From positions 453,790 to 517,789 of the forward strand of contig CAYRUS010000001.1 in NCBI GenBank assembly GCA_964427735.1: a DNA stretch of 64,000 bases. Direction: 5' to 3'. This DNA comes from an uncultured Gammaproteobacteria bacterium. Lineage in GTDB: Bacteria > Patescibacteriota > Microgenomatia > UBA8517. The position numbers and the translations under genes were made by a program. The notes beneath the pieces were generated by a model. That model saw nothing but the letters and a program-made list of their open reading frames with translations. It did not search any database and had not been told where the DNA came from. Positions 4,258 to 63,259 of this stretch are shown piece after piece. Within the stretch, counting starts at the first letter, position 1. Each line of letters begins with the position of its first letter.

Positions 4258-4650
4258 TTAAACATTATTATTTGATTTTAGATAATTCTCTAAAATCAAT
4301 GCTGCTGCAAAAGCGTCTTCTAATTTTTTTCTTCTTTTTTGACCTATCCCTGCTTCAATTGATAGCTCTTGAGCTTCCCTTGTTGTTAAAGTTTCATCAA
4401 AAAGTTTTACATCAATTTCTAATTTTTCTTTTAATGAATTTGCGAAATTTTTTGACTTTTCTGCCATTACTCCCTCAGATACTCCAACAATGACTTTTTC
4501 AACATCTTCTTCTTGAATTAACTTTTCCAATTTTTTGAATAATTCAGATGTGTCCTTATATCTAAGAACACCAAATGGTTCAGCAATAATACCAGAGGAT
4601 ATTGCTAAACCTACTTTTTTTAATCCAAAATCAATTGATAAGACTTGCAT
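4258..4650 (-). CDS. ruvX: Holliday-junction resolvase-like RuvX/YqgF
   Basis: MQVLSIDFGLKKVGLAISS N-terminus and a YqgF-like acidic core. The real start is probably the internal Met (4650) rather than the ORF-track start at 4686. Confidence 0.85.
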   Translation of the reverse strand: MQVLSIDFGLKKVGLAISSGIIAEPFGVLRYKDTSELFKKLEKLIQEEDVEKVIVGVSEGVMAEKSKNFANSLKEKLEIDVKLFDETLTTREAQELSIEAGIGQKRRKKLEDAFAAALILENYLKSNNNV

Positions 4651-5323
4651 TTGCTTGAGTATAGGGGACAATCTTTGCACGCACAACTAAACGCCTTGGT
4701 TTACGAGGATCTCCCGGAGGTGTGCAGGTAACCAAAGAAAGATAAGAACCATCAGTATCTTGTTCTAAAATCTCAATATCTGTTGGCAACACCTCGTATT
4801 TCGTTTCTACTTTGTATTTATAATCAACACCATCATAGTGAACAAAAATATCATCACCATTTTCTAACTTTGGAAGGGTAGAAAAAATGGTTAGATAATC
4901 TTTGGGATTAAAAAAGATAGGCAATACAGAATGCCCAAAAATAACCCCATTACCAATTTTCCCCGGAAGTGCTGTTCCAGGATATTGGATAAGGCTTTCG
5001 CTCAAATCATCTTTCCCAATAGCAACCGTAGCTTTGTTAATTTTTAATTTTGGAATAGTAATAGTAAAGTACTCTACCTTACTATTACTACTATCCTCAT
5101 TCTCTTTTTTACCAAACCAATTGCTTGCTTTAGTTAGATCAGTATTGTTTTGATTGTTTTGTATCTGAGTATTTATTTCAACTAAAGGATTTAATAATAC
5201 CGGATAACTACTCCTAGAAGTAAGTTCATAGCTTAACAAGTTAAATAAAACAACAGTTATCATTATTACTCCGGCAAAACCAGTAAAAAACGGAAATAGT
5301 CTAAAAAACGGCTTTTTACTCAT
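4631..5323 (-). CDS. Sortase-family transpeptidase
   Basis: N-terminal TM segment, GHSVLP His motif and the LVTCTPPG (TLxTC) catalytic-Cys motif. Probable start is the internal Met MSKKPFF. Confidence 0.8.
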   Translation of the reverse strand: MSKKPFFRLFPFFTGFAGVIMITVVLFNLLSYELTSRSSYPVLLNPLVEINTQIQNNQNNTDLTKASNWFGKKENEDSSNSKVEYFTITIPKLKINKATVAIGKDDLSESLIQYPGTALPGKIGNGVIFGHSVLPIFFNPKDYLTIFSTLPKLENGDDIFVHYDGVDYKYKVETKYEVLPTDIEILEQDTDGSYLSLVTCTPPGDPRKPRRLVVRAKIVPYTQANASLIN

Positions 5324-5330
5324 AGCAATA

Positions 5331-7532
5331 CTACCTCTCGGCTGCAACTTCAACAGAAATATTTTTCTTTTGGTAAGGAAGATTGCCTAACCTTCCTGGA
5401 AGTCTGGGTTCAATAATAATCTCAGCTCGAACAAATCCTGGTATCGAGTTCAAATACTCTCTTGCAATATGCGGATACTTACCTGATACTCGATCAGTAA
5501 TCTCATCTGGATTTAGTTCAGGAAGTAGATTGGCAATAATACTTGTCTCCATTTCATAAACTCCATCTTCCTCACCTACATACTTGAATTTAATTTCTAC
5601 TTGCTCATCTTTCAACACATAACCACTAGGCACCTGATTATCAAGGACCTCTCGTGCCAACTGAACTAGCAGATCTTTTTTTACAGATACTCCACTCACT
5701 TCTAATTCTAAATCAAGTTTTAATGAAGATGCCTCATCACCCACTTTGTTACTAAAACCGGTTTTTGTAACTTGTTGGGAAATTGAATCTTTCAAAAAGT
5801 CATTTCCGTCTTCTACTTTTTCTTCCAGTTCTTTAACTGCTTTTTGTGATAGTTCCTTCTCTAATTCCTCTTCTAAAGATTCTATATCACTTTCTGAGAC
5901 TGCGGCAACTTCACGACTTTCTCCTCCTGAAAAATCTTTTTTTGCAACAGCATCTACTTCTGCGGTTGGAAAGTTTCCTACAGAAAACTCTGTACCATTT
6001 GCTAAGTTATAGTCAGAACCAATATCAGTTGCTACTACTTCTACCTCTTGGGCACCTGGTTTTGTAGGTGATAGGGCAGCAGATACAGAGGCTGGTTCTA
6101 CTGTCTCGAATGTCAAGTTATTATCTGAAGTAAGTTTTGTCCCTACTGGTAAACGAATGCTTGAGCTTGTTCCATTACGAACCTCAACAGTTCCTTTGGC
6201 CTTTTCTCCGATTGTTCGTTTGCCTGTAGTCGACTTGGTACGATCCCCAGAAACAGTAGCGCTCATAACTCTACCAGGAATAACATTTTTTTCTATATCT
6301 AAATTACTCGCTTCTGGATCTATGTATACAGTTAATCTATCCTCTAAATTTTGAGGGGAAATAAAAATAGTCAAAGAAGCCTTTGGAATAAAGTACCAGT
6401 AAGCAACTACTGATCCAATTAGTAAAAGAAGTGCAATTATTACAATTGCTAATATTCTCCTCCCTGGGCCAGCAGGAGATTTTGGTTTTTTTACCTTTAC
6501 ACCAGAAAGTTTCGATTTTATAGCAGAAAAAAAAGGAGGAATTGTCAGTTTTCTCTTTTCATTTGTATCTTCTTTTGTAAATTCCTGATCCTCTAACTCA
6601 CCTTCAAGTTCTTCGACAGAGGCAATATTATCGGAATAGTATTTATTTTCATCAGGATTTTGGTCTTCCAAGGATTCATCTGTTATATCTTTACCCACCA
6701 CAAATCCCACATCTCCAACATCCCCTTTAGGGGAGTTTGGATTTCCAGCTACTTCTGTACCAGTATCTATTTTAGAAGTGTTTGCCATTTCAATACCTCC
6801 TGCTAAAGTTACTGCAAATATTTTTTGCTCTGGTTTAAACGTTTCTACTTTTGGCGTGTGCAAAAAAGAAATTTTTTCAGGAGTACTCCAATCAAATTTA
6901 ACCAACTCTTGTCGTGCATCTTCGAGTTCACTATCTTTTGCGTTATAAACTATAAACCTTGATGGGAAAACCTCACCAGAATAAAGTCTTGTCAATCCTT
7001 CTACAACGTCATCAACAAGAGAAACACTTCTTGATACATTTTCTATTCCCTTGTTTTCGCCATTTTTAAATAATGAAACCTCAAGATTGCCTTCTCTTAA
7101 GCCCAAAATTATCCCTGTAAAAGGTACACCATCCTCAGATTTTATGAAATTTGCAATAGCCTCCGGTAAAACTACATAACCTTGTGGATCCAAGGACAAC
7201 TCTTTACATACCTTCTCTAAATCTTTTAAATATTCTCCTTTTATATTTCCTTCAAGTATCCATTGAGAGGAAAGTCCGAAAACCGCTGCAGAAGGATCAT
7301 CTATATCCTCATCTAGATTCTGTACTGCAGAGGACAAGGCTGTATCAACAACACTTATTAGGTCTTCGTTTTCGTCTCGGCTTACAGGCTTGCCCACTGT
7401 TAATACTTTGGATTCTCCTTGATTTATACTCCATATCCCTGCTTGTACCCACGAAGGTTCTATGACAATCGACCAGTAATAGGAGCTTGTCTTTGACTTT
7501 GTCTTCGGCAGTAAAGATGAAAAGTCAACCAT
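5331..7532 (-). CDS. Large bitopic membrane protein. The N-terminal ~350 aa are cytoplasmic and look like a degenerate PilM/FtsA actin fold. A single TM helix follows, then a ~350 aa extracytoplasmic region
   Basis: The N-terminus FSSLLPKTKSK..SIVIEPSWVQAGIWSI aligns by pattern to PilM LSQLFRRKKAVGLDIGSSSVKAVEL, but the DIGSS phosphate loop is replaced. A second pattern GIILGLREGNLEVSLF resembles the actin adenosine motif. Acidic linker; TM helix ILAIVIIALLLLIGSVVAYWYF. Confidence 0.55.
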   Translation of the reverse strand: MVDFSSLLPKTKSKTSSYYWSIVIEPSWVQAGIWSINQGESKVLTVGKPVSRDENEDLISVVDTALSSAVQNLDEDIDDPSAAVFGLSSQWILEGNIKGEYLKDLEKVCKELSLDPQGYVVLPEAIANFIKSEDGVPFTGIILGLREGNLEVSLFKNGENKGIENVSRSVSLVDDVVEGLTRLYSGEVFPSRFIVYNAKDSELEDARQELVKFDWSTPEKISFLHTPKVETFKPEQKIFAVTLAGGIEMANTSKIDTGTEVAGNPNSPKGDVGDVGFVVGKDITDESLEDQNPDENKYYSDNIASVEELEGELEDQEFTKEDTNEKRKLTIPPFFSAIKSKLSGVKVKKPKSPAGPGRRILAIVIIALLLLIGSVVAYWYFIPKASLTIFISPQNLEDRLTVYIDPEASNLDIEKNVIPGRVMSATVSGDRTKSTTGKRTIGEKAKGTVEVRNGTSSSIRLPVGTKLTSDNNLTFETVEPASVSAALSPTKPGAQEVEVVATDIGSDYNLANGTEFSVGNFPTAEVDAVAKKDFSGGESREVAAVSESDIESLEEELEKELSQKAVKELEEKVEDGNDFLKDSISQQVTKTGFSNKVGDEASSLKLDLELEVSGVSVKKDLLVQLAREVLDNQVPSGYVLKDEQVEIKFKYVGEEDGVYEMETSIIANLLPELNPDEITDRVSGKYPHIAREYLNSIPGFVRAEIIIEPRLPGRLGNLPYQKKNISVEVAAER

Positions 7533-15299: not shown

Positions 15300-15301
15300 C
15301 T

Positions 15302-15883: not shown

Positions 15884-15904
15884 TTCTTTAAGTATATCAA
15901 ACTA

Positions 15905-15933
15905 GAAGTTGGCAGTAAGAAGTTAGAAGTTAG
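15905..15933 (-). promoter_or_regulatory. Tandem AAGTTAG heptad repeats (gene-strand reading AACTTCTAACTTCT...) 22-50 nt upstream of the udg start codon
   Basis: + strand reads ctaGAAGTTggcagtaaGAAGTTAGAAGTTAGtaac. The same 12-mer AACTTCTAACTT recurs upstream of the lon-like gene at 20794-20828. Confidence 0.35.
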
Positions 15934-15936
15934 TAA

Positions 15937-16506: not shown

Positions 16507-16599
16507 TGTCTAAATTATATCTTATTCTTTTCCTTATTTTATTCCTCACCAAATTTCTAGATTTGAATGCAGTGAGAAAATACTTTTTAAAAAGTCGCA

Positions 16600-39500: not shown

Positions 39501-39562
39501 AGCTGTCTGTGATATATTTAGTAAAGAAATCAACAAGCTATTATGCTTGTTTTTAAATAAAG

Positions 39563-40120
39563 ATGGCTGCCCAAAAATCAAAACAAATCAACTTACTTCC
39601 CAAGAGTAGCTTTGACGATTCCCCTTTTGGTAGAGTTTTAGTTTGGCTCACTACAACCTTCAGAGTAATGGTCATTATAACCGAGCTAATTGTACTAGCT
39701 GCGTTTCTATCTCGTTTTTGGCTTGATGCAAGAAATTCTGATCTAAATACTGAAATCAAACAAAAACAGGCACAAATACTTGCTTCTGCAAATTTTGAAA
39801 ATGAATTCAGACAAACCCAAAAAAAATTAGATATTTATTCTCAATTAATCAAAAACGAAGGTCTATTACAAGAAACAATAACAGCAATCCAAAATTCTCT
39901 GGTACCAGAGACATACTTAACACGAATTGCTTTTAGTGAAAATAACACATTAACAATAGAAGGAATTTCTGCTACCGAGTTGGGAATTGCTCAATTTGCT
40001 ACTAACCTTAAAGCAAAAAGTGGTATAAAAAACGCATATATTAAAGAGGCTAATTCAAATAGCGATAGTGGATTATCAACAGAATTTGTACTGGAAGCCC
40101 TACTAGAGAAAGAAAATTAG
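39563..40120 (+). CDS. pilN: PilN-like type IV pilus alignment protein
   Basis: Diagnostic N-terminal INLLP motif (KQINLLPKSSF), a single TM helix, and a coiled-coil plus periplasmic-type domain. 185 aa. Confidence 0.7.
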   Translation: MAAQKSKQINLLPKSSFDDSPFGRVLVWLTTTFRVMVIITELIVLAAFLSRFWLDARNSDLNTEIKQKQAQILASANFENEFRQTQKKLDIYSQLIKNEGLLQETITAIQNSLVPETYLTRIAFSENNTLTIEGISATELGIAQFATNLKAKSGIKNAYIKEANSNSDSGLSTEFVLEALLEKEN

Positions 40121-40124
40121 CATC

Positions 40125-40817
40125 ATGCAAGTAAGCTGGAAAAAAGACTACAATCGATATAGAAATTATTTTCTTGACGTTTATACGAAATACAGAAAGA
40201 AAAAAGATATTATGATCTTTTTGGAAATTCTGTTATCTTTGTTTACAGTCTCTATTTTGGCAATGTTTGCCTTAAAACCGACTGTTATTACTATTATTGA
40301 ACTAGTAAAGGAAATTCGAACAAAAGAAGAGCTTGTAGAAAAAATGGATCTTAAAATCAGAAATTTATCCACAGCCCAGTCACTTTACTCAAGAGAGTCT
40401 CGAAGAATCGACCTATTAAATCAATCTCTCCCTAACCAACCCAATGCAGATACTTTTCAAAAACAGTTAAGCGCGGTTTTTGCAAGAAACTCTGTTACTT
40501 TATCGACCACAACATGGGATCAATTTAACCTTCTTGGAAACAGAGTAAACACAAACACTCAAAATAATACAATTGATGAAACAGCAACTGCAATCACTTT
40601 AACAGTAACCGGCCAAGGGGACTACTCATCCGTTAGGAATCTTATGTCAGATCTTGAAAAGCTTAGACGACCAGTAATTATAGACACACTAGTAACCACT
40701 CCCGAAACAAGCGAAGAAAGCCAAACTATACTTGTTAATATCGGTGGAAAAGTACTTTATATTGACCCTCAAAAGGATATTCAAAACCCTGTTCAGACGG
40801 AAGAGACAGAATTATGA
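40125..40817 (+). CDS. PilO-like protein (TM helix, coiled coil, C-terminal domain)
   Basis: Its position after pilN, its size and its topology fit PilO. Direct sequence similarity is weak. Confidence 0.5.
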   Translation: MQVSWKKDYNRYRNYFLDVYTKYRKKKDIMIFLEILLSLFTVSILAMFALKPTVITIIELVKEIRTKEELVEKMDLKIRNLSTAQSLYSRESRRIDLLNQSLPNQPNADTFQKQLSAVFARNSVTLSTTTWDQFNLLGNRVNTNTQNNTIDETATAITLTVTGQGDYSSVRNLMSDLEKLRRPVIIDTLVTTPETSEESQTILVNIGGKVLYIDPQKDIQNPVQTEETEL

Positions 40818-41203
40818 AAAAAGACGCACCAAATATTGTAACTATCGCCATCATGTCTTTAATTACAGTGTTTTTATGGGTTGGATTTAGTATTTATAGA
40901 ACAATAACAAAGGAGGCTGCTCCTATTGTTGAAGAAACAGTGTTAAGAGACATTGATCCAAATCTTAACATTCAAGTACTATCCCAGATGGAGCAGAGGC
41001 TTCACATTGAAGAACCAGAGTTGTCAAACTTAGTTCAAAGTATTGAGTCACAATTACCTATAGACACCCAAATAGATGGAGAGACCCAAGATAGTACTCC
41101 ATCAGCAGAATTAAACCAAACTCCAGAATCAACAGTTGATGATGATAACGAAGATGAAATAATAGATGAAGAACAAGACCTACTTGAGGAAGAAAATGAA
41201 TAA
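40814..41203 (+). CDS. Small single-pass membrane protein with a strongly acidic C-terminal tail
   Basis: TM helix IVTIAIMSLITVFLWVGF, ending DDDNEDEIIDEEQDLLEEENE. Confidence 0.45.
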   Translation: MKKDAPNIVTIAIMSLITVFLWVGFSIYRTITKEAAPIVEETVLRDIDPNLNIQVLSQMEQRLHIEEPELSNLVQSIESQLPIDTQIDGETQDSTPSAELNQTPESTVDDDNEDEIIDEEQDLLEEENE

Positions 41204-42611
41204 CACCCAAGAAAACCCACCATCACCAAAAGAGGAGAAGGTTAATATACTTAACTCTGATATACCTACTCCCAAGCCACTAATGTTAAAAAGGCAAAAG
41301 ATGCCTACGGTATTTGGTGTTGCTGTATTGTTAATAGGTCTCGTCACAGGAATTGTGCTAGTACAAAGAGAACAGAACCTTGGCACAGAGGCAACAGATG
41401 AAGGTCAACCAGCTGATGTCAGAGTGACAAATATAACTGACTCATCATTTACAGTAAACTGGACTACCCAAACAGAAACACCAGAGTATGTTCTTTGGGG
41501 TAAAGACAACGATTTAACCAGCACAGGAAGCGACAACATAACTTCCAACGGAACTGTACACTCTGCAAACATCACAGGGTTATCCGCACAAACCACATAT
41601 AGTTTTAAAATTGGATCAGGAGATAAAGTTTTTGACAACAATGGACAACCCTGGGAAGTTACAACAGGACCTGTACTGCAAAACTCTTCAGTCGTATCAC
41701 CTATTTCTGGAACAATTACCTTGGCAAATGGACAACCGGCAAGTAATGCAATTGTTTACATAAATATAGGTGGTGCTTCACCAGTGTCCACAATTACTAC
41801 AAGTAATGGTAATTGGATATTGCCATTAACCACAATTCGATCTAGAGATTTAAATTCATACTTGTCCATTGATGATCAAAATACTGTTATGGAAATATTC
41901 GTTCAAGCAGGTCGACATGGTATCGCTACAGCAACAAGTTACCCATGGACATCAAGACCTTTACCAACCTTATCATTAGGAAGCAATGAAGATTTTAGAA
42001 ATTCCAGTAATACTGACTCCTCAACTCCATCATCTGAAATTAATTTACCTGAAGAAACAAACACAAATTCAAGATTTAATCTAGAAAGTACAAACTCAAA
42101 TGAAGATAACACTGTAACATTAGAAAGCATTGATGAAGGTGAAGTCTTTTCCACAACACAACCTCAATTTTTTGGAGAAGGATCCCCAGGTACCACACTC
42201 ACTATTACAGTCGAATCCACACCTATGACTGACAACATATCCGTGGGAACAAACGGAACTTGGAATTGGTCATTACCAAACCAACTAGAAGAAGGCAGTC
42301 ACAAGGTAATAATTTCTTGGAGAGATGGAAGCGGCATATTAAGAACAATTACCAGATCATTCACAGTTGAGGTTTCTGGAAGCACAGCTTTATTAGCAGC
42401 GACACCAACCCCAACAATAAAACCCACTTCAACACCTAAGCCTACCCCCACACTGACCTCCACACCAAAACCCACTCCTGATGTCCTTGCATCTTCATCA
42501 CCATTACCCGATGCAGGAATTTCAGTATATACTTTAAATCTTGCCTTAACTGGTTTAGTATTGTTATTGATGAGTAGCTTTGCTATTGTAGTTATAAGGA
42601 ATAAAAAATAA
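41166..42611 (+). CDS. Surface protein: N-terminal signal-anchor, a fibronectin type III domain, Ig-like region, Pro/Thr linker, and a C-terminal sortase sorting signal (LPDAG, hydrophobic stretch, then RNKK)
   Basis: FN3 pattern DVRVTNITDSSFTVNWTT...YSFKI. C-terminus LPDAGISVYTLNLALTGLVLLLMSSFAIVVIRNKK. Confidence 0.7.
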   Translation: MKNKTYLRKKMNNTQENPPSPKEEKVNILNSDIPTPKPLMLKRQKMPTVFGVAVLLIGLVTGIVLVQREQNLGTEATDEGQPADVRVTNITDSSFTVNWTTQTETPEYVLWGKDNDLTSTGSDNITSNGTVHSANITGLSAQTTYSFKIGSGDKVFDNNGQPWEVTTGPVLQNSSVVSPISGTITLANGQPASNAIVYINIGGASPVSTITTSNGNWILPLTTIRSRDLNSYLSIDDQNTVMEIFVQAGRHGIATATSYPWTSRPLPTLSLGSNEDFRNSSNTDSSTPSSEINLPEETNTNSRFNLESTNSNEDNTVTLESIDEGEVFSTTQPQFFGEGSPGTTLTITVESTPMTDNISVGTNGTWNWSLPNQLEEGSHKVIISWRDGSGILRTITRSFTVEVSGSTALLAATPTPTIKPTSTPKPTPTLTSTPKPTPDVLASSSPLPDAGISVYTLNLALTGLVLLLMSSFAIVVIRNKK

Positions 42612-42613
42612 CC

Positions 42614-43957
42614 ATGCCCAATCAAGATGACAATCAAAATCCACCTGTTTCTGATGAAATGAAACCGCCTGTTCCTCCAATCGTTGACGAGGAAAAAAAC
42701 ACTAATACTCCTAATACATCAAAACCTGAAAGTAGTACAAAAGATAATGCTCCACCACCACCTCCAGTATTTTCGGTAGGAAACCAGCCATTAGATAGCA
42801 ATACATCTGATATTCCCAACCCCCCACCTGCTGCCTCTGATGTGGTAGGAACTCCCAGCTCTGGTTCCCCAACAAAGAACTTTTTTACAAAAAAAGTTGT
42901 AGCAACATTCTTGGGAATACTCTTATTGGTAGGGGGAGTAATATCCGGGATAATCTTAGTACAAAGACAACAGGACATTAGAAAACAAGCCGGATCAATT
43001 GGAGGCTTAGCCTGTACTTCTCCTAAAGGCATCATTGTCACAAGCAAATCTCAACCTGGCTTACCAGGTGACCTTGGTTATAAGCCAATACCTCAAACAT
43101 ATAATGTTGGTGAAACTGTAAATTTTCAGGTACAAGTCAAAAATGAATCAAATAATCGTGTTTCAGATCATTATCATTTTTTTGCTCAAAAAGTGGTTGA
43201 AGCACCTCGAGGGCAAACTCCAAATCCTAACCTAACAGAACCTGAAATGTATAGTATCCACAATGATCCAAGCAGGGGAACATCTCAAGTCACCAAATTC
43301 AACAGTGGCAATCAACCATTTACTCTTGAACCAGGGGCAACTCAATACCTTAAGTATTCGTGGAAACCAACTGAATGCGGTTTTTATCAGATCGATATGG
43401 GTATTGAGGACTTTTTCTATGTAAACCGCGATAATTCTAGCCAAACCTGTCAAATTACTCAAACACCAGACCGAGATGCAGTAGCTGCCGCCGGATTTAT
43501 AAAAGTAGTTGGTTGTGATGTTAATCCAACAGCTACACCAACAATAAGACCGACCTCTACACCACAACCAACGCCTACACCAACAACAAGACCAGGCGTG
43601 ACGCCAACACCTACAGCCACACCAGCAAAAACCACACCACCATCTGCACCACAAGGCGGAGCATGTTTTAATATTAGAACTTATGACCTAGAAGATAATG
43701 AACTAAGTATCCAAGATCTTTCAAACTTACAGCCAGGAGATCGTATAAAATTTGTTGTAGCAGGAGTAGCAACGCCTAATGGAACTTATGATCGTGCAAG
43801 ATTTAGAGTAACCACAGGTGATATTATTCCAAGCTGGAATGAAGTAACAACTTCAGATGAAGATTCGACATTTTATTACATATATACAATTCCTGATGAT
43901 GCTGAAACTTTCAAAGTAGAAGCACAAATTCACCACAGTGTTAGTGGTTGGTTATAA
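42614..43957 (+). CDS. Secreted or surface protein with a Pro-rich N-terminus, signal-anchor and Pro/Thr linker
   Basis: Its anchor ...GGVISGIILVQRQQ resembles the anchor of the preceding protein. No C-terminal sorting signal. Confidence 0.55.
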   Translation: MPNQDDNQNPPVSDEMKPPVPPIVDEEKNTNTPNTSKPESSTKDNAPPPPPVFSVGNQPLDSNTSDIPNPPPAASDVVGTPSSGSPTKNFFTKKVVATFLGILLLVGGVISGIILVQRQQDIRKQAGSIGGLACTSPKGIIVTSKSQPGLPGDLGYKPIPQTYNVGETVNFQVQVKNESNNRVSDHYHFFAQKVVEAPRGQTPNPNLTEPEMYSIHNDPSRGTSQVTKFNSGNQPFTLEPGATQYLKYSWKPTECGFYQIDMGIEDFFYVNRDNSSQTCQITQTPDRDAVAAAGFIKVVGCDVNPTATPTIRPTSTPQPTPTPTTRPGVTPTPTATPAKTTPPSAPQGGACFNIRTYDLEDNELSIQDLSNLQPGDRIKFVVAGVATPNGTYDRARFRVTTGDIIPSWNEVTTSDEDSTFYYIYTIPDDAETFKVEAQIHHSVSGWL

Positions 43958-44661
43958 AAACTATGAAAATGAATATTAAAACAATAATAATTGGACTTTC
44001 GACCGTAGTCCTTGGTGGAGTAGCAATCTTTACTGCTGTTAGACTATATCAGCTAAGAAGTGAACCCATCGCTCCCAACGCCCCGCAAAGTCAGCCACTG
44101 GCACAGCAAGGAGGTCTTTGTGGAGGAATAACTCAAATATCATGTGCAAGTGGTTTTACCTGTATCTATGAAAACGGTAGCACTATTGCTCCTCATCCTG
44201 ATGCTACCGGAACTTGTCAACCTCAAAACCAAGGGGCAAATGAAGGAGAAATGTGTGGAGGCATTGCAGGAATTGACTGTGCAAAAGGTCTCGTTTGTGA
44301 TTATGGCTCAGGTAACCTATCAGCACCCAACCCTGATGCTACTGGGGTATGTGTATCTGAAACAAACAAATCTGCCTGTGAGGCAATTACTTTTACTATC
44401 ACCAAAGCTACTCCTACACCCACAGCAACTGCTAATGTAACTAGCACGCCAACGCCTACACCTACAGATACCCCTGCTGGTGAGGATCCAACACCTACAG
44501 CAGCATCAACATTGAAACCAACATCTACACCAAGTCAGCCATTGGCTGAAACTCCAACTCCAGCTCCTAGCCTGCCAACAGCTGGTGTAGGATCACCTAC
44601 AATTATCGGACTAGGCGCTGGAATGTTAATCTTGCTCTTCTCACTTATTCTTGCATTGTAA
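43948..44661 (+). CDS. Surface protein with two Cys-rich ~40-aa repeats, a Pro/Thr linker and a C-terminal LPTAG sorting signal
   Basis: Repeats CGGITQISCASGFTCIYENGSTIAPHPDATGTC and CGGIAGIDCAKGLVCDYGSGNLSAPNPDATGVC. C-terminus SLPTAGVGSPTIIGLGAGMLILLFSLILAL. Confidence 0.65.
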   Translation: MVIKTMKMNIKTIIIGLSTVVLGGVAIFTAVRLYQLRSEPIAPNAPQSQPLAQQGGLCGGITQISCASGFTCIYENGSTIAPHPDATGTCQPQNQGANEGEMCGGIAGIDCAKGLVCDYGSGNLSAPNPDATGVCVSETNKSACEAITFTITKATPTPTATANVTSTPTPTPTDTPAGEDPTPTAASTLKPTSTPSQPLAETPTPAPSLPTAGVGSPTIIGLGAGMLILLFSLILAL

Positions 44662-47224: not shown

Positions 47225-49681
47225 TTACCAGGTTTTAAACCAATGATAGCTTTCATCAAGCCAAACTGGTACTGTTATGCCTGTGTAGCGAGGTAAAAAG
47301 TATATAAAAGCAACCATAGCTAAACTAAAAAACCACAGTCTCACTTTTTTATATTTTGCAAGAATAAATCCTAACAAAATTGCTAAAAAGGGAATGGACG
47401 GCAAGTAATGGTACAAAAACATAATTCTAGGCGAGGCTGCCCAAGGAACAAAAAATATTGCATACGAAAAAACTATTAGAGCAATCTTTTTAGCCCACTC
47501 ATTCTTTAAAGAAAAGTTTTTAATAACCAAATATACACATACCAATACCGCTATCAATCCTCCCCAAAAAACTATTGGATTCCCCATTATGTAAATATTG
47601 GAAACAACATTGTCAACAACTCCACCGGCATAAACCCAAATTGGTCTTAATAAAATTGGCCAACTCCACCATGGTGAAGTAAAAGGATGCTCTGCCTCCA
47701 AACGTGTGTGATACCACCACATTTGCTTTTGAACTCCAATAAATATGTCAAAACCGTGACCACTAGTGAACATTGGGATATAACTTGCCAAATAAACAAG
47801 AGGAGGTAACAAAATAAACCATATATAATTTAGTCTAAACTTTTTCCCTAGCAACAAAAATGCAATAGGAAAAATCGGCAATGCCCACAAAGCACTCCAT
47901 TTGGAAGCAAGAGCTAAACCATAAGCTATTGCTGAAAAAGCATATTTATCTTTAATAAATAGATAAAAAGACAATAAAACAAAAAATAATAAATAAGCAT
48001 CATTCATTCCAATTCTGCTTAGCCCTAGAGGCAAACCATCAAGAGCAAATACCGCAGAGGAGAAAATACCAACGTCTCTATTAAAAAGTTCCTTAGCGAT
48101 TAAATAAACCAATAAAACACTTCCTGTACCTAAAATTGCAGCGGGGAAACGCCAAGCAAAGGCCTGTTCTCCAAATATAGCCATTGAGAACCACATACCT
48201 TCTTTTGCAAGTGGAGGGTGAGTCCATTCATAGGCAAAACCTTCGGGATGGGGATTCCACCATTCCCAAGCCATTGGATTCCCTTGAAGCATTTGTCTTG
48301 CTGTAAAAGCATGATAAACCTCATCAAAGTACTCGTTCTTTGGTTCACTTAAACTTACTAATCTGACAAACAAAGATCCCAATAATACAAGCACTAAGAG
48401 AATTTTAATTTGCTTGTCTGTAAACACTTCATTAACAACTAGCTTTTCTGATTTTTTTGTCCCTGGATCTAAATTAAAAGAAAGAGAAAAAAGCTTACTG
48501 GTAGTGATTTTCACTTTTGAAGCATAAACCAAAATAGCCAATCCTAATACATTAATAATAGAAAATGCTTTCGATACAAAGACAGGAAAGACTTCTTTGA
48601 AATTGTTAGTTATCCAAACATAAGCGTAATATAGGTTTGCTAAATAACCTACAGATAAAGCAAGATAAACAAAAGCTGCTACTTCATAAAATGCAGATAC
48701 AATAGCCAGTGGGGCAAGAGCTGGAAGCAAATGTCTTTCATGAAGACGAGTAAAAAATACAAAGTTTGCCAAAAACAATACGGAAAGCAAAAAGTAGCTG
48801 GATTTTTCTTCTTTTTTTAATTTTATGGCCGTCAATATAAAAATAAATACTGTCATTAAATAACCAAAAAACTTATAAACAGGATTGTCGGGTCGCCAAA
48901 AGCCAAATATGCCCCAGAAATTAAAAGCATTTACACTGGTATATGGGTACTGATTTAAAGTTGTGTTAATTCTTTGAACTATAAACTCCATCAGTGATCC
49001 ATTATTCCAAAAAGGAACAAAGGCAAGAGCAAAAATAACTCCAGATAATAAAATATAAGTGGCAACATTAACTAATCTTGTCTTTCTTGTATACATTAAA
49101 TAAAGTACGACAAGTGCTACTAAAGCAGCTTGTGGCTTGACTAGTGTGCCAATAGCAAGGAAAAAAGCTGATAAGTACAAATTACTACCAAAAGAAAATA
49201 TAGTAAGTAAAGAAAAAAGTGCAGTTAAAGAGTCCACTTGTCCCCACAATGCCGAGTTTGCAAAAACTGCCGGGTTAAATAACCACATTCCACTAGCTAC
49301 TAATGCCTTTTTAGAAGAGGTATACTTTTTAACTACTAGGTAAACAAGATATCCGATCAAGACATCAGAAAAAATTGCGGGCAATTTATACAGTATGACT
49401 TCTGGTATTAAAATGGCTTGATTTATTTTCCCCAATAACCACAAAACATAAAGGTATCCTGGCAAATAATCAGACCAATTACTATAAAAATTCCTAAACC
49501 CATTTTCTGCAAGGTTATTACTCCAACTCAGAAAAGTGTTAAAATCAAGCTCAAGAGTACCAAAAGGAGACATAAAAATCCTTAAGGCCAGCGCTGCCAA
49601 GAGCAAAACCAAAATATTTTTATCAAATTTTATATCTCTAAAAAACCTCATAAATTTTAACTTCTTCATTAGTATACACAT
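47225..49681 (-). CDS. Large polytopic membrane glycosyltransferase: a GT-C-like N-terminal half fused to a PMT/ArnT-like (PMT_2) C-terminal half
   Basis: The second half carries YFDEVYHAFTARQM, matching the DE loop motif of PMT/ArnT-type GT-C enzymes. About 20 TM helices; 818 aa. Confidence 0.65.
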   Translation of the reverse strand: MCILMKKLKFMRFFRDIKFDKNILVLLLAALALRIFMSPFGTLELDFNTFLSWSNNLAENGFRNFYSNWSDYLPGYLYVLWLLGKINQAILIPEVILYKLPAIFSDVLIGYLVYLVVKKYTSSKKALVASGMWLFNPAVFANSALWGQVDSLTALFSLLTIFSFGSNLYLSAFFLAIGTLVKPQAALVALVVLYLMYTRKTRLVNVATYILLSGVIFALAFVPFWNNGSLMEFIVQRINTTLNQYPYTSVNAFNFWGIFGFWRPDNPVYKFFGYLMTVFIFILTAIKLKKEEKSSYFLLSVLFLANFVFFTRLHERHLLPALAPLAIVSAFYEVAAFVYLALSVGYLANLYYAYVWITNNFKEVFPVFVSKAFSIINVLGLAILVYASKVKITTSKLFSLSFNLDPGTKKSEKLVVNEVFTDKQIKILLVLVLLGSLFVRLVSLSEPKNEYFDEVYHAFTARQMLQGNPMAWEWWNPHPEGFAYEWTHPPLAKEGMWFSMAIFGEQAFAWRFPAAILGTGSVLLVYLIAKELFNRDVGIFSSAVFALDGLPLGLSRIGMNDAYLLFFVLLSFYLFIKDKYAFSAIAYGLALASKWSALWALPIFPIAFLLLGKKFRLNYIWFILLPPLVYLASYIPMFTSGHGFDIFIGVQKQMWWYHTRLEAEHPFTSPWWSWPILLRPIWVYAGGVVDNVVSNIYIMGNPIVFWGGLIAVLVCVYLVIKNFSLKNEWAKKIALIVFSYAIFFVPWAASPRIMFLYHYLPSIPFLAILLGFILAKYKKVRLWFFSLAMVAFIYFLPRYTGITVPVWLDESYHWFKTW

Positions 49682-51572
49682 TTCTCATATATGGTGAGTT
49701 ATCAAAATTAGCCTCTGCTTCCGGATATTCTCTCTTTTCAGCATTTCCATAATAAATATAATCAAATGAATATTTTGATTTTAATAGATCAAGATAAGCT
49801 TTATTATCTGGATTCGAATAGAACTTTTCGATTTCTTCAGATCTGACAAACACGTTATCTTCACCAGAGTTATATCCGTGGCTATGTGGCCAATTTATAT
49901 AAGAAAGAATTCTTAAACGTCCTGCAACTTGTGTGATTGGAGAATGAACAGTCGGTAATCCAACATAAACTGATTTTTGCGGTGTTTGCTGCCTCATCCA
50001 AATTCCTGCTTCATATTCTGGCAAAGTGTACGCCTGATTTTTATTTATAACACTCCAAAGCACAACCAAGAATGAACTCGAAATAGTAGTTAAAATCACC
50101 ACTATAGAAACAGCTTGTCCAAGAATCCTTTTTTGCTTAACTAAATCTGATAATACCCACCCTGTAATAACTGCAACCGGAATTATCATAAAGTAAAAAA
50201 ACTTAAACATATCTTTTTCATAGATAGTAAAAGTCACACTGTAAGGGATTATAAACAAGATTAAACCGAAGAAAAATAAATACCAAAAGTGTTTATTTTT
50301 AAAATCTTTTGCTAAAACTACCTTGACAGGTGCAATTAAAAATATCACAAAAGGTAAGCCAAAATTATTTAATATAAAACTAAGATGCCAATGGAAGCTT
50401 CTATCACTATTCCAATTTCCAAAACGAAAAGTTTCTTCCACCAAGTTAATCAATGAATTCCCATTAGTTTTAGTACCTAAAAACATTGGAGAAATAATTA
50501 AAATAGGAAGTATAAAAACAATAAGTAGTTCTATATTCTTTCTCAAACCTTTTATCGAAAAAAACAACAAATTAACCAAGCCAAACAATATAAAGCCAAC
50601 AATAAATGCAAAAAACTGGAATTTACTTACTAAGGCTGTTACAACTCCTGCAAGTAAAACTCTCTTATAATCCTTTTTTTCATACCCCGTGGACAAAACA
50701 TACGCAATAATTGCAACTGAAGGTAAACCAACCATCATGGGCCGGTTTTGTAAAAAATAATCAACCATTGGAGCCATCTGATACAAACCATTTGACTCTA
50801 TGCTGTAACCTCTATAAAGCAAGTCAATTATTGCAATAAAAATCGGTCTCTGACCAAGCTGAGCATTAACATCGGTTATAAATTTTATATAAATCCAATT
50901 GCTAAAAAATGCACCGATAACCGAAGAAATGATTGCTGCAACTTTATCTTTAAAAAGCAAATACGAAAAAGAATATATGCTAAAAGCAAAAGTAAAAATA
51001 AAAATAGGATTTGTATAAACTAAAACACGAGGAAAAAATTCAGACTTTAAAACATTAATTATTGCAGAGTGAAAATCTGAAAAATAATAATAAGTCATGA
51101 GCTTACCTGCATAGTATGGAGCTTGAGGAGGGAAATTACCTTCGGCAATACTTTCTATAATCCCAATGTGCATTGCTGTATCTTGCCAGTTAACAGCAGA
51201 TAAAACCACATAGTTATTATAAACAGTAAAAATTGCTGGATACAAAGCAAAAAACACTATGCCTAAACTTAAAATGGACACCACCCAAATAAATGTATGC
51301 TCTTTAAAAAAAGTAAGTTTAGGCTTTTTTATGTCAATTAAAAAAACCAGTGGTAAAAATATGGACATAGCAAATAAAACATAAAACCTGTTTAGTTTAA
51401 AAAGGGAAGCTACAAAATAGACTACATATGTTGAAAATAATACACTTAAAATAATGTATAAAGGAATTTTCTCAAGTGGCTCAAGTTTTTTGAAAAAAGC
51501 CTCTATAATAAGAACACCAGGTATAAAAAAAATAAACAAAAAACCTACAACAGCTAATAAATGATTAACCAT
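49638..51572 (-). CDS. Polytopic membrane protein, probably a GT-C-type glycosyltransferase
   Basis: 644 aa with many TM helices and the loop NWQDTAMHIGIIESIAEGNFPPQAPYYAG. This is a family-level guess only. Confidence 0.5.
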   Translation of the reverse strand: MVNHLLAVVGFLFIFFIPGVLIIEAFFKKLEPLEKIPLYIILSVLFSTYVVYFVASLFKLNRFYVLFAMSIFLPLVFLIDIKKPKLTFFKEHTFIWVVSILSLGIVFFALYPAIFTVYNNYVVLSAVNWQDTAMHIGIIESIAEGNFPPQAPYYAGKLMTYYYFSDFHSAIINVLKSEFFPRVLVYTNPIFIFTFAFSIYSFSYLLFKDKVAAIISSVIGAFFSNWIYIKFITDVNAQLGQRPIFIAIIDLLYRGYSIESNGLYQMAPMVDYFLQNRPMMVGLPSVAIIAYVLSTGYEKKDYKRVLLAGVVTALVSKFQFFAFIVGFILFGLVNLLFFSIKGLRKNIELLIVFILPILIISPMFLGTKTNGNSLINLVEETFRFGNWNSDRSFHWHLSFILNNFGLPFVIFLIAPVKVVLAKDFKNKHFWYLFFFGLILFIIPYSVTFTIYEKDMFKFFYFMIIPVAVITGWVLSDLVKQKRILGQAVSIVVILTTISSSFLVVLWSVINKNQAYTLPEYEAGIWMRQQTPQKSVYVGLPTVHSPITQVAGRLRILSYINWPHSHGYNSGEDNVFVRSEEIEKFYSNPDNKAYLDLLKSKYSFDYIYYGNAEKREYPEAEANFDNSPYMRNVYTNEEVKIYEVF

Positions 51573-52730
51573 ATTAAAAAGTTTATATCAAAAGAAAAAT
51601 TACTGTTAATTTTATTATTTTCAATTTCTCTTTTTATATACTACTTAACTTCAGCAGGAAATACTCCCTATGACTACTTTACCAGATTAGCATCTGCTTT
51701 TTTACAAGGAATGTATTGGATTGAAAACCCACCCCAATGGCTAAACGAGGTTATTCCTTATCATGGAAAATATTATGTTGTTTACCCTCCTATGCCTGCC
51801 ATTGTTCTTATTCCATTTGTATATTTATTTGGAGAAAGTTTTCCTCAACAACTATTAGCACACTTAATGGGTGCCGGGATTGTTGTATTTTCTTATAATG
51901 CGGTACTTTCTTTGACTAAAGTAAAAAAGATCGCACTCTGGTCAGCATTACTTATTGGCTTGGGTAGTATTGTCTGGTATTTATCAGCTACGGGATCTGT
52001 TTGGTATCTTGGTCAAGTTTCCGCTGCATTCTTTATGACTGCAGCTTTGTATTTTGTTTTAGAAAAAAAATTTTTTTTGAGCGGCTTGTTTCTCGGAGCA
52101 TCCTATCTTTCAAGAGTACACACTATCGCTGCTATTCCTGTTTTTTTGTATTTGTCTTATAAACACAAAAAAAAATCAATTCTTTCATTTGTAACAGGTG
52201 TACTGCCGTTTTTGATTTTCAATGCTTTATATAATTATGTGAGATTTGGAGTTCCTTGGGATATTGGCTATAAGCTCATTCCCGGAGTATTAGAAGAACC
52301 ATGGTATCAAAAAGGTCTGGTGCATCCTAGCTATATATTGTCTCATTTAAAAATAATGTTTTTAGCCTTACCTAAATTACTAAATGAATTTCCATATATC
52401 CAACCATCTTGGGCAGGATTAGCAATCTGGATAACTACTCCAGCTTTTGTATTTTGTTTGTTTGCTCCATTAAAACAAAATATTACAAAATTTTTATGGT
52501 TGTCTTTATTATTGGTTTCAATACCTGTTTTAATGCACGGTGGAACAGGCTTTACGCAGTTTGGATATAGGTATGCTGTTGATTTTTATCCACTTCTTTT
52601 ACTTTTAACTGCTTTAGGTGTCAAAAAAACAGGCCTAAAAAAATACCACTGGGTTTTATTAATTATTGGAGTAATCGTTAATCTGTGGGGAGTACTATGG
52701 ATTAATAAATTTGGTTGGATAAGTTATTAA
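51561..52730 (+). CDS. PMT_2/ArnT-like GT-C membrane glycosyltransferase
   Basis: 389 aa polytopic. N-terminal loop GNTPYDYFTRLASAFLQGMYW...YHGKYYVVYPPMPAI, typical of the PMT_2 family. Confidence 0.55.
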   Translation: MINHIKKFISKEKLLLILLFSISLFIYYLTSAGNTPYDYFTRLASAFLQGMYWIENPPQWLNEVIPYHGKYYVVYPPMPAIVLIPFVYLFGESFPQQLLAHLMGAGIVVFSYNAVLSLTKVKKIALWSALLIGLGSIVWYLSATGSVWYLGQVSAAFFMTAALYFVLEKKFFLSGLFLGASYLSRVHTIAAIPVFLYLSYKHKKKSILSFVTGVLPFLIFNALYNYVRFGVPWDIGYKLIPGVLEEPWYQKGLVHPSYILSHLKIMFLALPKLLNEFPYIQPSWAGLAIWITTPAFVFCLFAPLKQNITKFLWLSLLLVSIPVLMHGGTGFTQFGYRYAVDFYPLLLLLTALGVKKTGLKKYHWVLLIIGVIVNLWGVLWINKFGWISY

Positions 52731-52788
52731 AAAACTTAATTTATTCAAAAATATATATTTAATCTTTCTTTTGCAAATCTGCTATCAA

Positions 52789-53874
52789 TTAATTATTAAG
52801 TAAATTAGACACCCAATCATGAATCTCGCTCCAGTCACCAGATCTAGGAACAAATACATACAAATTATCATAATCTTCACTTGGCTCTGGATTTTCTAAA
52901 AGCGTCTCATCTATCACTTCTGAATGAATATTTTCTTTTGCTACATATGCAAATCTAGCCACTGCTGCAGCCTCTTCTTGAGAGAAATCTGTTTCTACAT
53001 TGTTCTCTGCAATACCAATAAGCTCTTTTATCTTTACTGGAGAAGCAACAACCTCTGCACTAATCAATTTATCCCTCAGTGCCATGATTACTTTTTGTTG
53101 CCTGCGACTTCTAGCTGTGTCTGTACCTTCTTCACCTTCAGCATGCCTGGATCTTACAAATTTAAGAGATGTTTCTCCATCCATATGCGTCAATCCTGGT
53201 TCAAAAGTTATTGTTTCATATCGACATCTTAATTGAATATCTCCTTCACAATTATCATTTTCTCTGCCCGGAATAGGGTACATATGATCGGTAAAACCAT
53301 TGTCAATAACTACATCAATACCTCCAACAACATCAATTGCACCTTTAAAAGCCTCAAAATCAACTACAACACCATAATGAACCGGCAGACCTACGATTTC
53401 TTCAACTGTTGCTTTAGCAAGCAATAGACCTCCATTTTCTTGCTTTTGATTTCCCCAATAATAAATACTGTTGAGTTTTGCTCTAAGTTCAGAAATCCAA
53501 ATATCACGAGGGAGAGAAATAATAACAATATCTCCACCATCATCTGGTACAGATACAAACATTATTGTATCTGTCAGGTCAGGTGCTTCGTGTCCCGTGC
53601 CTCCTTTCCCTAAAACTAAAATATTGGTCCTGCCTTCAAATGATTTGACTTCACCACTTCTTGCAAATACAAACTCATACAAAGCGTTTGTATATTTTGT
53701 TACTCCTGCTTCCTTTAGATAATTTTTAGCCAAAAAGGCAGTAATCAATATAAATAACACTAGACCTCCTGCAACAAAAAGCCGTATAGCCTTGTTGTGA
53801 ACTAAAATCCTTCGTTTTAGTTTTGATAATTTGATATAAAGTTTTCCTTTTTTGGTATTTGTTTTGTTGTCCAT
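52789..53874 (-). CDS. LCP (LytR-CpsA-Psr) family phosphotransferase
   Basis: TNILVLGKGG...DTIMFVSV...IISLPRD core motifs of the LCP domain, after an N-terminal TM helix. Confidence 0.85.
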   Translation of the reverse strand: MDNKTNTKKGKLYIKLSKLKRRILVHNKAIRLFVAGGLVLFILITAFLAKNYLKEAGVTKYTNALYEFVFARSGEVKSFEGRTNILVLGKGGTGHEAPDLTDTIMFVSVPDDGGDIVIISLPRDIWISELRAKLNSIYYWGNQKQENGGLLLAKATVEEIVGLPVHYGVVVDFEAFKGAIDVVGGIDVVIDNGFTDHMYPIPGRENDNCEGDIQLRCRYETITFEPGLTHMDGETSLKFVRSRHAEGEEGTDTARSRRQQKVIMALRDKLISAEVVASPVKIKELIGIAENNVETDFSQEEAAAVARFAYVAKENIHSEVIDETLLENPEPSEDYDNLYVFVPRSGDWSEIHDWVSNLLNN

Positions 53875-57129: not shown

Positions 57130-58224
57130 ATGGATACCAATAGAATAAGTAGTTCTGAAAAAAACATCTTCAACAAATATGCAGTTCATCCACTTCAGTC
57201 TTGGGAGTGGGGCGAATTTCGCAAAAAATGGGGGAACGAGATTATTAGACTTGGAAATTACTCAGAAAAAAATCTTCAAGATTCTATTCAAGTAGTATTC
57301 AGTAAAATCCCTAGATCTAAATATAAGATTGGAACAGTTTTAAGAGGATCAAAACCTAACAAGAAAACATTACAAAAACTCAAAGAAATTGCTAAAGAGA
57401 AAAATGCTGTTTTTATTAAACTTGAGCCAAACGCACTCCTAAATATATCACCTGTAATCAAAAATACTGATTTTGATAAAACAAATGTGTTAAAAAAAGT
57501 CCCAAATAATCTAAAAGCTTCTAAAAAAGATTTACAAATTTTAGAAAAAGAAACAATACCAGGAAAAACACTTTTTACTCCTACTTCTTTCTGGATTGAC
57601 CTTAGCAAAGATGAAGATACCTTAATGAAAAACATGCACCCTAAAACCAGATACAACGTTCGTTATGCAGAAAAAAAAGGAGTTGTAATTATTGAAGATA
57701 ATTCAGACAAAGCTTTTGAAAAGTATATAAAATTAACCAGAGAAACAGTCGAAAGACAAGGTTTTTATGCTCATACTGAAAACTATCATAGGTTAATGTG
57801 GCAAACCCTCCATAAAGAGATGGTTGAAAGGAAAGATAAACCTATTGCACGATTACTTACTGCTCGATTCAGAAAAGAAATTCTAACTACCTGGATTGTG
57901 TTTGCCTGGAATGATTTTTTGTATTACCCATATGGAGCATCAAGTAATAGACGTAGAAACCTTCAACACAGCAGTGCAATGATGTGGGGTGCAATTTTAT
58001 ATGGCAAGAAATTGGGTTTAAAATGGTTTGATTTATGGGGGAGAGAAGAGGGACAAGGATTTACTCGATTTAAAGAAGGCTTTAACCCTTATGTTGTGGA
58101 GTTTATGAAAACTTGGGACTTGCCTACTACCAAACTTTATTGGCCATATCGCTTAGCAGAGGAGGGACGCTGGCTTTATTTACGAACAAAAGCAAAAACT
58201 GGTTTGATTAAGCACAGATTTTGA
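57130..58224 (+). CDS. FemAB-family aminoacyl-tRNA-dependent peptidyltransferase (FemX-like)
   Basis: QSWEWGEFRKKWG and KTRYNVRYAEKKGV match the FemABX K-x-RYNIR-x-A-x-K-x-GV motif. C-terminal GFTRFKEGF. Confidence 0.75.
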   Translation: MDTNRISSSEKNIFNKYAVHPLQSWEWGEFRKKWGNEIIRLGNYSEKNLQDSIQVVFSKIPRSKYKIGTVLRGSKPNKKTLQKLKEIAKEKNAVFIKLEPNALLNISPVIKNTDFDKTNVLKKVPNNLKASKKDLQILEKETIPGKTLFTPTSFWIDLSKDEDTLMKNMHPKTRYNVRYAEKKGVVIIEDNSDKAFEKYIKLTRETVERQGFYAHTENYHRLMWQTLHKEMVERKDKPIARLLTARFRKEILTTWIVFAWNDFLYYPYGASSNRRRNLQHSSAMMWGAILYGKKLGLKWFDLWGREEGQGFTRFKEGFNPYVVEFMKTWDLPTTKLYWPYRLAEEGRWLYLRTKAKTGLIKHRF

Positions 58225-58228
58225 AATT

Positions 58229-58948: not shown

Positions 58949-59049
58949 AATTTCTTATAAAAGATAACATATATAAACCAAAACACGAAAGTTTATAGCA
59001 AAAACAATAACTATACACATCAATTTTAGTTAATTGTTATAATAAGTTT

Positions 59050-63203: not shown

Positions 63204-63259
63204 AGGCTATATACTAACTTAGGCACAGGTTTTATTCAATACCTAAATTTTCACAGATT

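Follow-up and report, generated by a model that had tools for sequence, protein, structure and literature searches.

The 64-kb stretch of contig CAYRUS010000001.1 considered here (positions 453,790 to 517,789; hereafter the window, to which all coordinates refer) carries a cassette of six tightly packed plus-strand genes at 39563–44661: pilN, a pilO-like gene, and four further genes, p3 through p6. PilN and PilO are known from the alignment subcomplex of type IV pilus (T4P) machines; the four downstream genes encode envelope proteins, of which p4 and p6 end in sortase-type sorting signals. A sortase gene lies about 34 kb away, beside the gene for a 733-residue membrane protein, A733. This coupling of pilN-pilO to four envelope proteins, two of them with wall-anchoring signals, is an arrangement not previously described. 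Open reading frame (ORF) calls find all six cassette genes on the plus strand at the positions given in a preliminary description, which was made from the sequence alone.

PilN scores 31.8 bits against Pfam PF05137 (cut-off, 22.8), and contains the sequence QINLLPK at residues 8–14. Within its INLLP peptide (residues 9–13), an alignment of 35 relatives shows no change at N10, L11, and P13, and at least 90% conservation of I9 and L12. The FLSRFWLD segment just outside the membrane is invariant as well. A family profile from these relatives, compared with all Protein Data Bank (PDB) sequences, matches Myxococcus xanthus PilN (3jc8_Na; E 4.7e-6, positions 9–148), which bears out the original call of a PilN with INLLP. 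An HMMER profile search of 1.84 billion representatives gave 276 matches at E≤1e-30. A Rosetta-stone fusion of PilN was rejected, because the top 150 matches listed are all standalone proteins of about 180 residues.

The INLLP peptide of PilN binds a groove in PilM (structures 2ych and 5eou). Its invariance in the present family argues for a groove-bearing, PilM-type partner. No pilM gene stands beside pilN; the upstream neighbor is rpsT in all 80 of the loci described below.

The pilO-like protein of the window falls just below the Pfam PilO cut-off (PF04350, 21.2 bits; cut-off, 22), with further marginal scores for Pfam T2SSM_b (19 bits) and NCBIfam GspM (19.8 bits). Its family is recognized more readily: 30 of 42 orthologs match PF04350, the best at 1.9e-11, and the family profile finds M. 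xanthus PilO in the PDB (3jc8_Oa, E 3.2e-8), along with two nonsignificant PilO entries (E 0.047 and 0.11). At the family level, these comparisons confirm the gene as pilO.

The window is low in GC (about 35%), and the nearest relatives of its proteins are found in assemblies of Woesebacteria and Microgenomates. Judged by these proteins, the source belongs to the Candidate Phyla Radiation (CPR) and is of Woesebacteria type. Four Hainich groundwater metagenome-assembled genomes (MAGs) share the cassette, and their classification is c__Microgenomatia; o__GWA2-44-7; f__UBA8517. Complete or near-complete Woesebacteria genomes that carry it include CP011214.1, CP066686.1, OY970314.1, and JBFOMS010000006.1. 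Many of the public MAGs with the Woesebacteria cassette (loci L012–L086) are titled "uncultured Gammaproteobacteria bacterium" or "Alphaproteobacteria bacterium", and look mislabelled.

The neighborhoods of three PilN relatives, inspected first, matched that in the window. Conservation was then assessed by scanning one genome per species with the PilN alignment; the 80 species-level loci returned, from GTDB order GWA2-44-7, were annotated locally by phmmer. Essentially every locus that is long enough has the order rpsT-pilN-pilO-p3-p4-p5-p6, usually followed by a convergent gene for a PMT-family protein O-mannosyltransferase. All six cassette genes are present in 52 of the 63 loci whose sequence extends 5.2 kb or more past pilN, and p3 follows pilO in 76 loci (median gap, −4 nucleotides). 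Across the five junctions, the median gaps are 2, −4, −4, 6, and 4 nucleotides, with frequent start/stop overlaps. PilN identity between species with the cassette is just 37–49%; that short gaps and overlaps are kept despite this divergence is strong evidence for co-transcription and translational coupling. By this sequence evidence, the six genes are one operon, lineage-wide in the uncultured Woesebacteria. The preliminary description had allowed that a lack of conserved linkage to sortase or its substrates would count against it. What is found is the reverse: pilNO is linked to two sortase substrates in about 80 species.

Upstream of the cassette, rpsT precedes pilN directly and has the same orientation; beyond it come the MurJ and HrcA-GrpE-DnaK-DnaJ genes, which are on the opposite strand. 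The rpsT/pilN interval contains a hairpin, AACAAGC-TATTAT-GCTTGTT, followed by TTTT, at 39532–39555, 8 nucleotides 5′ of the pilN start codon. This may be a weak terminator or attenuator that splits rpsT from the cassette. It was the one weak structure found in a terminator scan, and a promoter scan stayed at background (21 found, 17 expected).

In the proteins encoded by p3 through p6, the N-terminal transmembrane (TM) and juxtamembrane motifs are the best-conserved parts, for example QIFRLGA in p4, LVQQQQDIREKA in p5, and RLYQLRQ in p6. The corresponding stretches are 40814–40900, 41283–41400, 42890–43000, and 43963–44080, with orthologs in loci L004–L090. Such conservation of TM segments is unusual for plain signal peptides. 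The conserved segments suggest specific contacts within the membrane. Prepilin-like processing of p4, p5, and p6 was rejected, since no G|F/M-T-L-I-E motif is seen on reading their N-termini.

The first of these proteins, p3, is the small acidic membrane protein of the preliminary description, with its N-terminal TM segment and acidic tail. Its orthologs conserve the TM and a juxtamembrane segment (..VP.EIL.PI.P.LD...L..I..R.FF), followed by a variable tail that is either acidic or Pro/Thr-rich; p3 has no family match in Pfam or NCBIfam. The second, p4, was likewise correctly seen as an FN3 surface protein: Pfam finds Pur_ac_phosph_N/fn3 and Big_13. Orthologs place its true start probably near 41283 (MLKRQKMPTVFG).

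The third, p5, had been described as Pro-rich and secreted. The Pro-rich part stands. Members share a conserved start (MPNQD or MPDQN), a tail of about 90 residues that is rich in Pro, and a cluster of basic residues, and then a highly conserved TM region, KKKFGGGKxIATILGxLLLVGGxGAGVxLVQQQQDIREKA. By the positive-inside rule, the basic residues ahead of the TM would place the Pro-rich tail in the cytoplasm. From its start, basic residues, and TM, p5 is probably a type II membrane protein and not a secreted one. A variable, Cys-containing middle leads to a conserved C-terminal domain ending IHHxxLGW, and a sorting signal is absent. No consistent Pfam family was found (CARDB in 4 of 42), nor any significant PDB sequence match. 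The p5 homolog search yielded 11 proteins, low-complexity Pro/Thr regions having swamped the word filter; a weaker match, P0248, lies in an unrelated polysaccharide locus. Finally, p6 has the two Cys repeats first noted for it, and its true start, again judged from orthologs, is probably near 43963.

Both sorting signals are at the C-termini where they had been read. In p4, LPDAG (nucleotides 42504–42518) is followed by 26 hydrophobic residues and RNKK; NCBIfam LPXTG_anchor scores 14.5 bits at residues 447–481, just below its cut-off of 15.9. In p6, LPTAG (nucleotides 44572–44586) is followed by a hydrophobic tail without a basic end, and the signal is hence only partly canonical. Orthologs reveal longer patterns. 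For p4, 57 of 66 have [LVTI]P[EVDQ][TSA]G-[SDN]LTPT, a hydrophobic segment, and a basic tail; for p6, 64 of 65 have LPx[AS]G-[TIV]xWPT and a hydrophobic segment ending ..LLLAL, without a basic tail. The two share the extended consensus [LIVT]Px[TSA]G-xxx-PT. Thus, the "LPxAG" signals of the preliminary description are genuine and conserved, but LPxAG itself is only this genome's form: in the alignments, LPDAG and LPTAG are local variants of the shared extended motif. Within the window, p4 and p6 are the only two carriers of a C-terminal sorting signal, and among all ORFs of the fetched Woesebacteria loci, credible carriers are essentially only p4/p6 relatives or their fragments. Conserved and confined in this way, the signals are far from chance matches.

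The candidate enzyme for p4 and p6 scores 82.3 bits against the Pfam sortase family (PF04203; cut-off, 26.6) and 55 bits against TIGR01076 (cut-off, 39.35), and falls below every class-specific cut-off: class C is best (61.9 bits; cut-off, 160), followed by class E (49.2) and class D (37.1–44.1). With the catalytic His, Cys, and Arg all present, it is a genuine sortase. Its pairing with p4 and p6 as enzyme and substrates is a prediction.

Directly upstream of the sortase gene is that for A733, which belongs to a full-length family with more than 300 members. A metagenome scan for A733 returned 80 loci (L091–L170), and the sortase gene is directly 3′ of the A733 gene in 62 of the 64 with enough sequence. 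The order RNase J-FtsK-HTH_25-AlaRS-A733-sortase-RuvX-YceG is fixed. The A733-sortase pair is inserted in a conserved alaS-ruvX-yceG (mltG) cluster, adjoining FtsK and an HTH_25 (possibly RodZ-like) gene.

The preliminary description took A733 for a PilM-like fusion beside the sortase. The sortase and an actin-like fold are both there: the N-terminal 260 residues are predicted, at a predicted local distance difference test (pLDDT) score of 90.6, to form a bare two-lobe ASKHA (actin-like) core. The PilM identity does not hold. Foldseek ranks PPX/GppA, PilM, FtsA, and EutJ together, and Hsp70 and PPX/GppA match about as well as PilM. In PilM, subdomains 1C and 1A form the groove for the PilN N-terminus (structures 2ych and 5eou). 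The A733 model has no room for 1C, and its phosphate-2 motif is degenerate (LGVGxEN versus DIGGGT). Pfam and NCBIfam give no PilM, FtsA, or GspL match in the window's A733 or in 44 family members, the profile finds no PDB match, and hhalign of the N-domain against Escherichia coli HofM and FtsA gives a probability below 1%. The ectodomain is baseplate-J-like plus SIMPL/BP26-like, not of the ferredoxin-like PilN/GspL type. A733 is therefore a novel sortase-linked membrane protein, for which the PilM label is not justified.

Moreover, no match to pilN, pilO, or p3 through p6 lies within 10 kb of the A733 gene in the 80 metagenome loci. The preliminary description had paired scaffold with sortase at one locus and scaffold with substrates at the other. 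The second pairing is sound, in that pilNO is linked to p4 and p6 in about 80 species; the first is not supported, since the PilM label for A733 is not justified. The pilN and A733 loci (80 of each) are never adjacent within 10 kb. A733 is only a possible member of a pilNO-sortase system.

The remaining T4P genes were sought in the window and around its relatives. Among window ORFs of at least 110 residues, there is no Pfam match to T2SSE, T2SSF, PilM, prepilin peptidase, or pilin, and a six-frame scan found no prepilin motif; the reported absence of pilB, pilC, pilT, and pilin genes from the window is thus correct. Within 10 kb of the 80 pilN loci, there is no T2SSE ATPase motif, prepilin motif, sortase match, or A733 match.

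Published surveys describe such genes in related genomes. Across the CPR, the PilB, PilT, PilC, PilM, PilN, and PilO families are enriched, widespread, and often co-localized; sortase is nearly ubiquitous among Microgenomates (PMC6744442). The only T4P locus of a complete Microgenomates genome encodes PilA, minor pilins, and PilD, PilB, PilT, PilC, and PilM; PilN and PilO are not listed (PMC7143001). Homologs of pilB, pilT, pilM, and pilC occur in most Patescibacteria phyla (PMC12206443).

Table 1. Features of the window discussed in the text.
Feature	Coordinates	Strand	Description
pilN	39563..40120	+	185 aa; cytoplasmic N-terminal INLLP peptide (nt 39587-39601), one TM, FLSRFWLD, PilN domain
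pilO-like	40125..40817	+	230 aa; TM, coiled coil, and PilO/GspM-type domain; starts 4 nt after pilN
p3	40814..41203	+	129-aa bitopic protein; N-terminal TM, acidic tail; overlaps pilO stop by 4 nt
p4	41166..42611	+	Surface protein; FN3/purple-acid-phosphatase-N-like, CarboxypepD_reg-like, and Big_13 domains, PT-rich stalk, LPDAG end
p5	42614..43957	+	447 aa; Pro-rich tail, TM with LVQQQQDIREKA-type motif, Cys-containing middle, PT linker, C-terminal beta-rich domain
p6	43948..44661	+	237 aa; TM with RLYQLR motif, two Cys-rich repeats, PT-rich stalk, LPTAG and hydrophobic tail
Sortase	4631..5353	-	Candidate enzyme for p4/p6; N-terminal TM; FGHS (His), LVTCTP (Cys), RRLVVRA (Arg)
A733	5331..7532	-	733-aa sortase-linked membrane protein; predicted ASKHA cytoplasmic domain, acidic linker, TM, baseplate-J-like and SIMPL-like ectodomain
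PMT-family protein O-mannosyltransferase	47225..49681	-	Pfam PMT_4TMC, PMT_2, PMT; convergent with cassette

Downstream of p6, the PMT gene occupies the opposite strand in most loci. Its product may glycosylate Pro/Thr-rich stalks, a peripheral role; the Pro/Thr/Ser-rich stalks among p3 through p6 are plausible O-glycosylation targets. The interval 47225–53874 continues beyond the PMT gene with two further multi-TM ORFs without a Pfam match, possibly glycosyltransferases, and then an LCP (LytR_cpsA_psr) gene. Near the LCP and PMT genes, at 57130–60640 on the plus strand, are two FemAB-family genes (peptidoglycan interpeptide-bridge transferases), which bear on the linkage target of the sortase. 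Elsewhere in the window, two adjoining minus-strand genes at 62064–63925 match the MATCAP family PF08014 (microtubule-associated tyrosine carboxypeptidase/DUF1704-type; E 5e-60 and 3e-49), and a 301-residue protein encoded at 18316–19221 (minus strand) matches, over its full length, the "eukaryotic" dimethylarginine dimethylaminohydrolase model PF19420 (E 6e-103).

No description of the operon, the extended sorting motif, or the A733/sortase pair was found in the literature searched. Among published items, those that come nearest are the Pam pili of the CPR and, in Clostridium perfringens, T4P-assisted export. Several better-known systems share parts of the operon. In the T4aP alignment subcomplex of Pseudomonas aeruginosa and M. 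xanthus (pilMNOPQ; structures 3jc8, 2ych, and 5eou), PilO and the INLLP-type PilN are homologous to those described here, and the order pilN-pilO, small protein, larger envelope proteins mirrors pilN-pilO-pilP-pilQ. However, the Woesebacteria operon has rpsT, not pilM, upstream (80 loci); homologs of PilP and PilQ are absent; the locus does not include motor or pilin genes; and the downstream genes encode bitopic and sortase-signal proteins of a monoderm envelope.

Monoderm T4P systems, including those of C. perfringens, Streptococcus sanguinis, and Saccharibacteria TM7x, also have PilN and PilO but no secretin (PMC11580942, PMC12206443). In C. perfringens, PilM, PilN, and PilO help to export a matrix protein, and the matrix operon adjoins a sortase gene (PMC11580942, PMC12206443). 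This offers a loose precedent for T4P parts that act with wall-associated proteins. In contrast to the Woesebacteria operon, these systems keep pilM, pilN, and pilO together with pilB, pilC, and pilD, and co-transcribe no sortase substrates with pilNO; the matrix proteins of C. perfringens strain 13, unlike p4 and p6, lack LPXTG.

The sortase locus has parallels of its own. Housekeeping sortases with LPXTG substrates, and SafA in Actinomyces (PMC9282373), are alike in the His/Cys/Arg enzyme, the tripartite signals, and a sortase-coupled membrane protein. They differ in that the Woesebacteria signals carry the xxxPT extension, p6 lacks a basic tail, and the sortase fits no defined class; SafA is a small TM peptide, whereas the partner here is a 733-residue ASKHA/baseplate-J-like protein. 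A733 also has the layout of GspL from type II secretion (PilM-like domain, TM, PilN-like domain): an actin-like domain with a degenerate nucleotide site, one TM, and an external domain. However, the external part is not ferredoxin-like, and there is no T2SSL Pfam signal. Pam pili (bioRxiv 10.64898/2026.03.03.709456) are likewise a CPR-specific surface system of Microgenomatia, with Ig/FnIII-type modules and a membrane-anchoring FnIII protein. By its description, the Pam operon stands apart: it encodes membrane-anchored chaperones and donor-strand pilins, with no reported PilN, PilO, or sortase signals, and the ORF list of the six-gene operon holds no extra gene that could be a chaperone.

These features can be assembled into a tentative model, which is preferred here although it falls somewhat short of an even chance: the operon would supply a T4P-type machine with its envelope-side module, built with components that are lineage-specific and sortase-anchored. 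PilN and PilO would pair in the cytoplasmic membrane as the usual bitopic heterodimer. The INLLP peptide would recruit a PilM-type actin-like protein, and so tie the complex to a PilB/PilC motor encoded elsewhere. In diderms, pilP and pilQ come next in the operon; in their place, the monoderm cells considered here would co-translate the bitopic proteins p3 and p5 and the exported stalk proteins p4 and p6. The single conserved sortase encoded 34 kb away would cleave p4 and p6 at their [LIVT]Px[TSA]G signals, linking both proteins covalently to peptidoglycan. The neighboring PMT enzyme may glycosylate the Pro/Thr-rich stalks. The outcome would be a structure fixed to the wall over the PilNO platform, serving as a collar, a guide, or an adhesive. 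The homology of PilN and PilO, the conserved sorting signals, the operon, and the sortase are observed features on which this model draws; the physical association of p3 through p6 with PilNO, and their role as collar or guide, are its conjectural steps.

Several observations weigh against the envelope-module model. Neither the window nor the 10 kb past its right end contains pilB, pilC, pilT, pilD, pilM, or a pilin gene, and the same is true of about 160 related loci, to a distance of 10 kb from pilN or from A733; the presence of T4P motor genes elsewhere in these genomes is presumed from the literature. The proteins p3 through p6 match no known pilus component in Pfam, NCBIfam, and PDB sequence searches. 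The gene p4 is missing in seven loci (L034, L039, L040, L064, L072, L081, and L086). Finally, the flanks (MurJ, HrcA-GrpE-DnaK, rpsT, and PMT) are equally syntenic in this lineage, and conserved order alone is thus weak evidence of shared function.

Some of these observations also support a second explanation, in which pilN and pilO serve an ordinary T4P encoded elsewhere, and p3 through p6 are unrelated wall-anchored glycoproteins or adhesins that share a promoter region in a small, syntenic genome. The housekeeping flanks, with rpsT directly upstream, the lack of any match to a pilus protein family, and the seven losses of p4 would all be expected if the functions were separate. Tandem p5-p6 duplications or extra p5/p6-like genes in some species point the same way (L004/L028, OY970314.1, at 13001–16512; also L021 and L050), as do the p5 and p6 ectodomains, which vary greatly between species in the manner of adhesins, and the PMT and LCP neighbors, which would suit a general envelope-glycoprotein locus. 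However, overlaps and gaps of 2–6 nucleotides persist at all five junctions across deep divergence; the TM segments of p3 through p6 are unusually conserved; and pilN-pilO, in 80 species, always occurs with p3 and never with pilM or another pil gene. Separate functions are, on balance, doubtful, though they deserve serious attention.

A third explanation, close to that first offered in the preliminary description, removes PilN and PilO from the pilus machine altogether: with the actin-like A733 and the sortase, they would form a T4P-independent platform that positions, assembles, and covalently anchors p4 and p6. The near-obligate A733-sortase pairing (62 of 64 loci) fits this idea, as do the actin-like cytoplasmic domain of A733, with FtsA and PilM among its best structural matches, the restriction of sortase-type substrates to p4 and p6 in all fetched sequence, and the absence of T4P core genes from every fetched region. 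If true, ultra-small, episymbiotic bacteria would have a sortase-coupled apparatus of a new kind, for display or attachment. It is nevertheless improbable. The A733 N-domain has no sequence-level PilM, FtsA, or GspL signal; it is a minimal ASKHA core without 1C, no closer to PilM than to Hsp70 or PPX/GppA, and its LGVGxEN motif is degenerate; its ectodomain resembles neither PilN nor GspL; and the pilN and A733 loci are never neighbors. Moreover, T4P genes with a sequence-recognizable PilM are reported to be common in the CPR and Microgenomates (PMC6744442, PMC7143001). The T4P loci and homologs of the literature (PMC7143001, PMC12206443) favor a split T4P over a T4P-independent display machine. 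Together with the invariant INLLP peptide, they (with PMC6744442) favor a split T4P gene set in which pilN-pilO has been relocated into an envelope operon.

A non-T4P surface fiber is very improbable. It would be either a sortase-polymerized pilus or a donor-strand-exchange fiber of the kind represented by CPR Pam pili, and PilNO would serve anew as its membrane base. In its favor, the best sortase class model is that of the pilus-polymerizing class C (61.9 bits), such pilins typically contain Ig-like and FN3 modules, Microgenomatia have Pam pili with an FnIII-type membrane anchor (bioRxiv 10.64898/2026.03.03.709456), and the p5 profile is very weakly similar to the archaeal bundling-pilus protein AbpX (E 0.4). 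Against it, the class C score is far under its cut-off of 160, and p4 as read has neither a YPKN pilin motif nor an E-box; on these two grounds, p4 was rejected as a classical sortase pilin. In addition, the operon lacks chaperone-like genes, the AbpX match is not significant, and the p5 and p6 domains vary more than a shaft subunit would allow.

T4P are thought to be central to the attachment of CPR/Patescibacteria to host cells, and to feeding on them. On the envelope-module model, the operon, conserved across an entire order of uncultured bacteria, is a candidate for the part of that machine that spans the wall or is anchored in it, and would stand in functionally for PilP and PilQ. The near-ubiquitous sortase of Microgenomates has in p4 and p6 its likely substrates. 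The analysis also defines an extended sorting motif, [LIVT]Px[TSA]G-xxx-PT, and a previously undescribed, almost obligate sortase partner that is predicted to be actin-like inside the cell and phage-baseplate-like outside.

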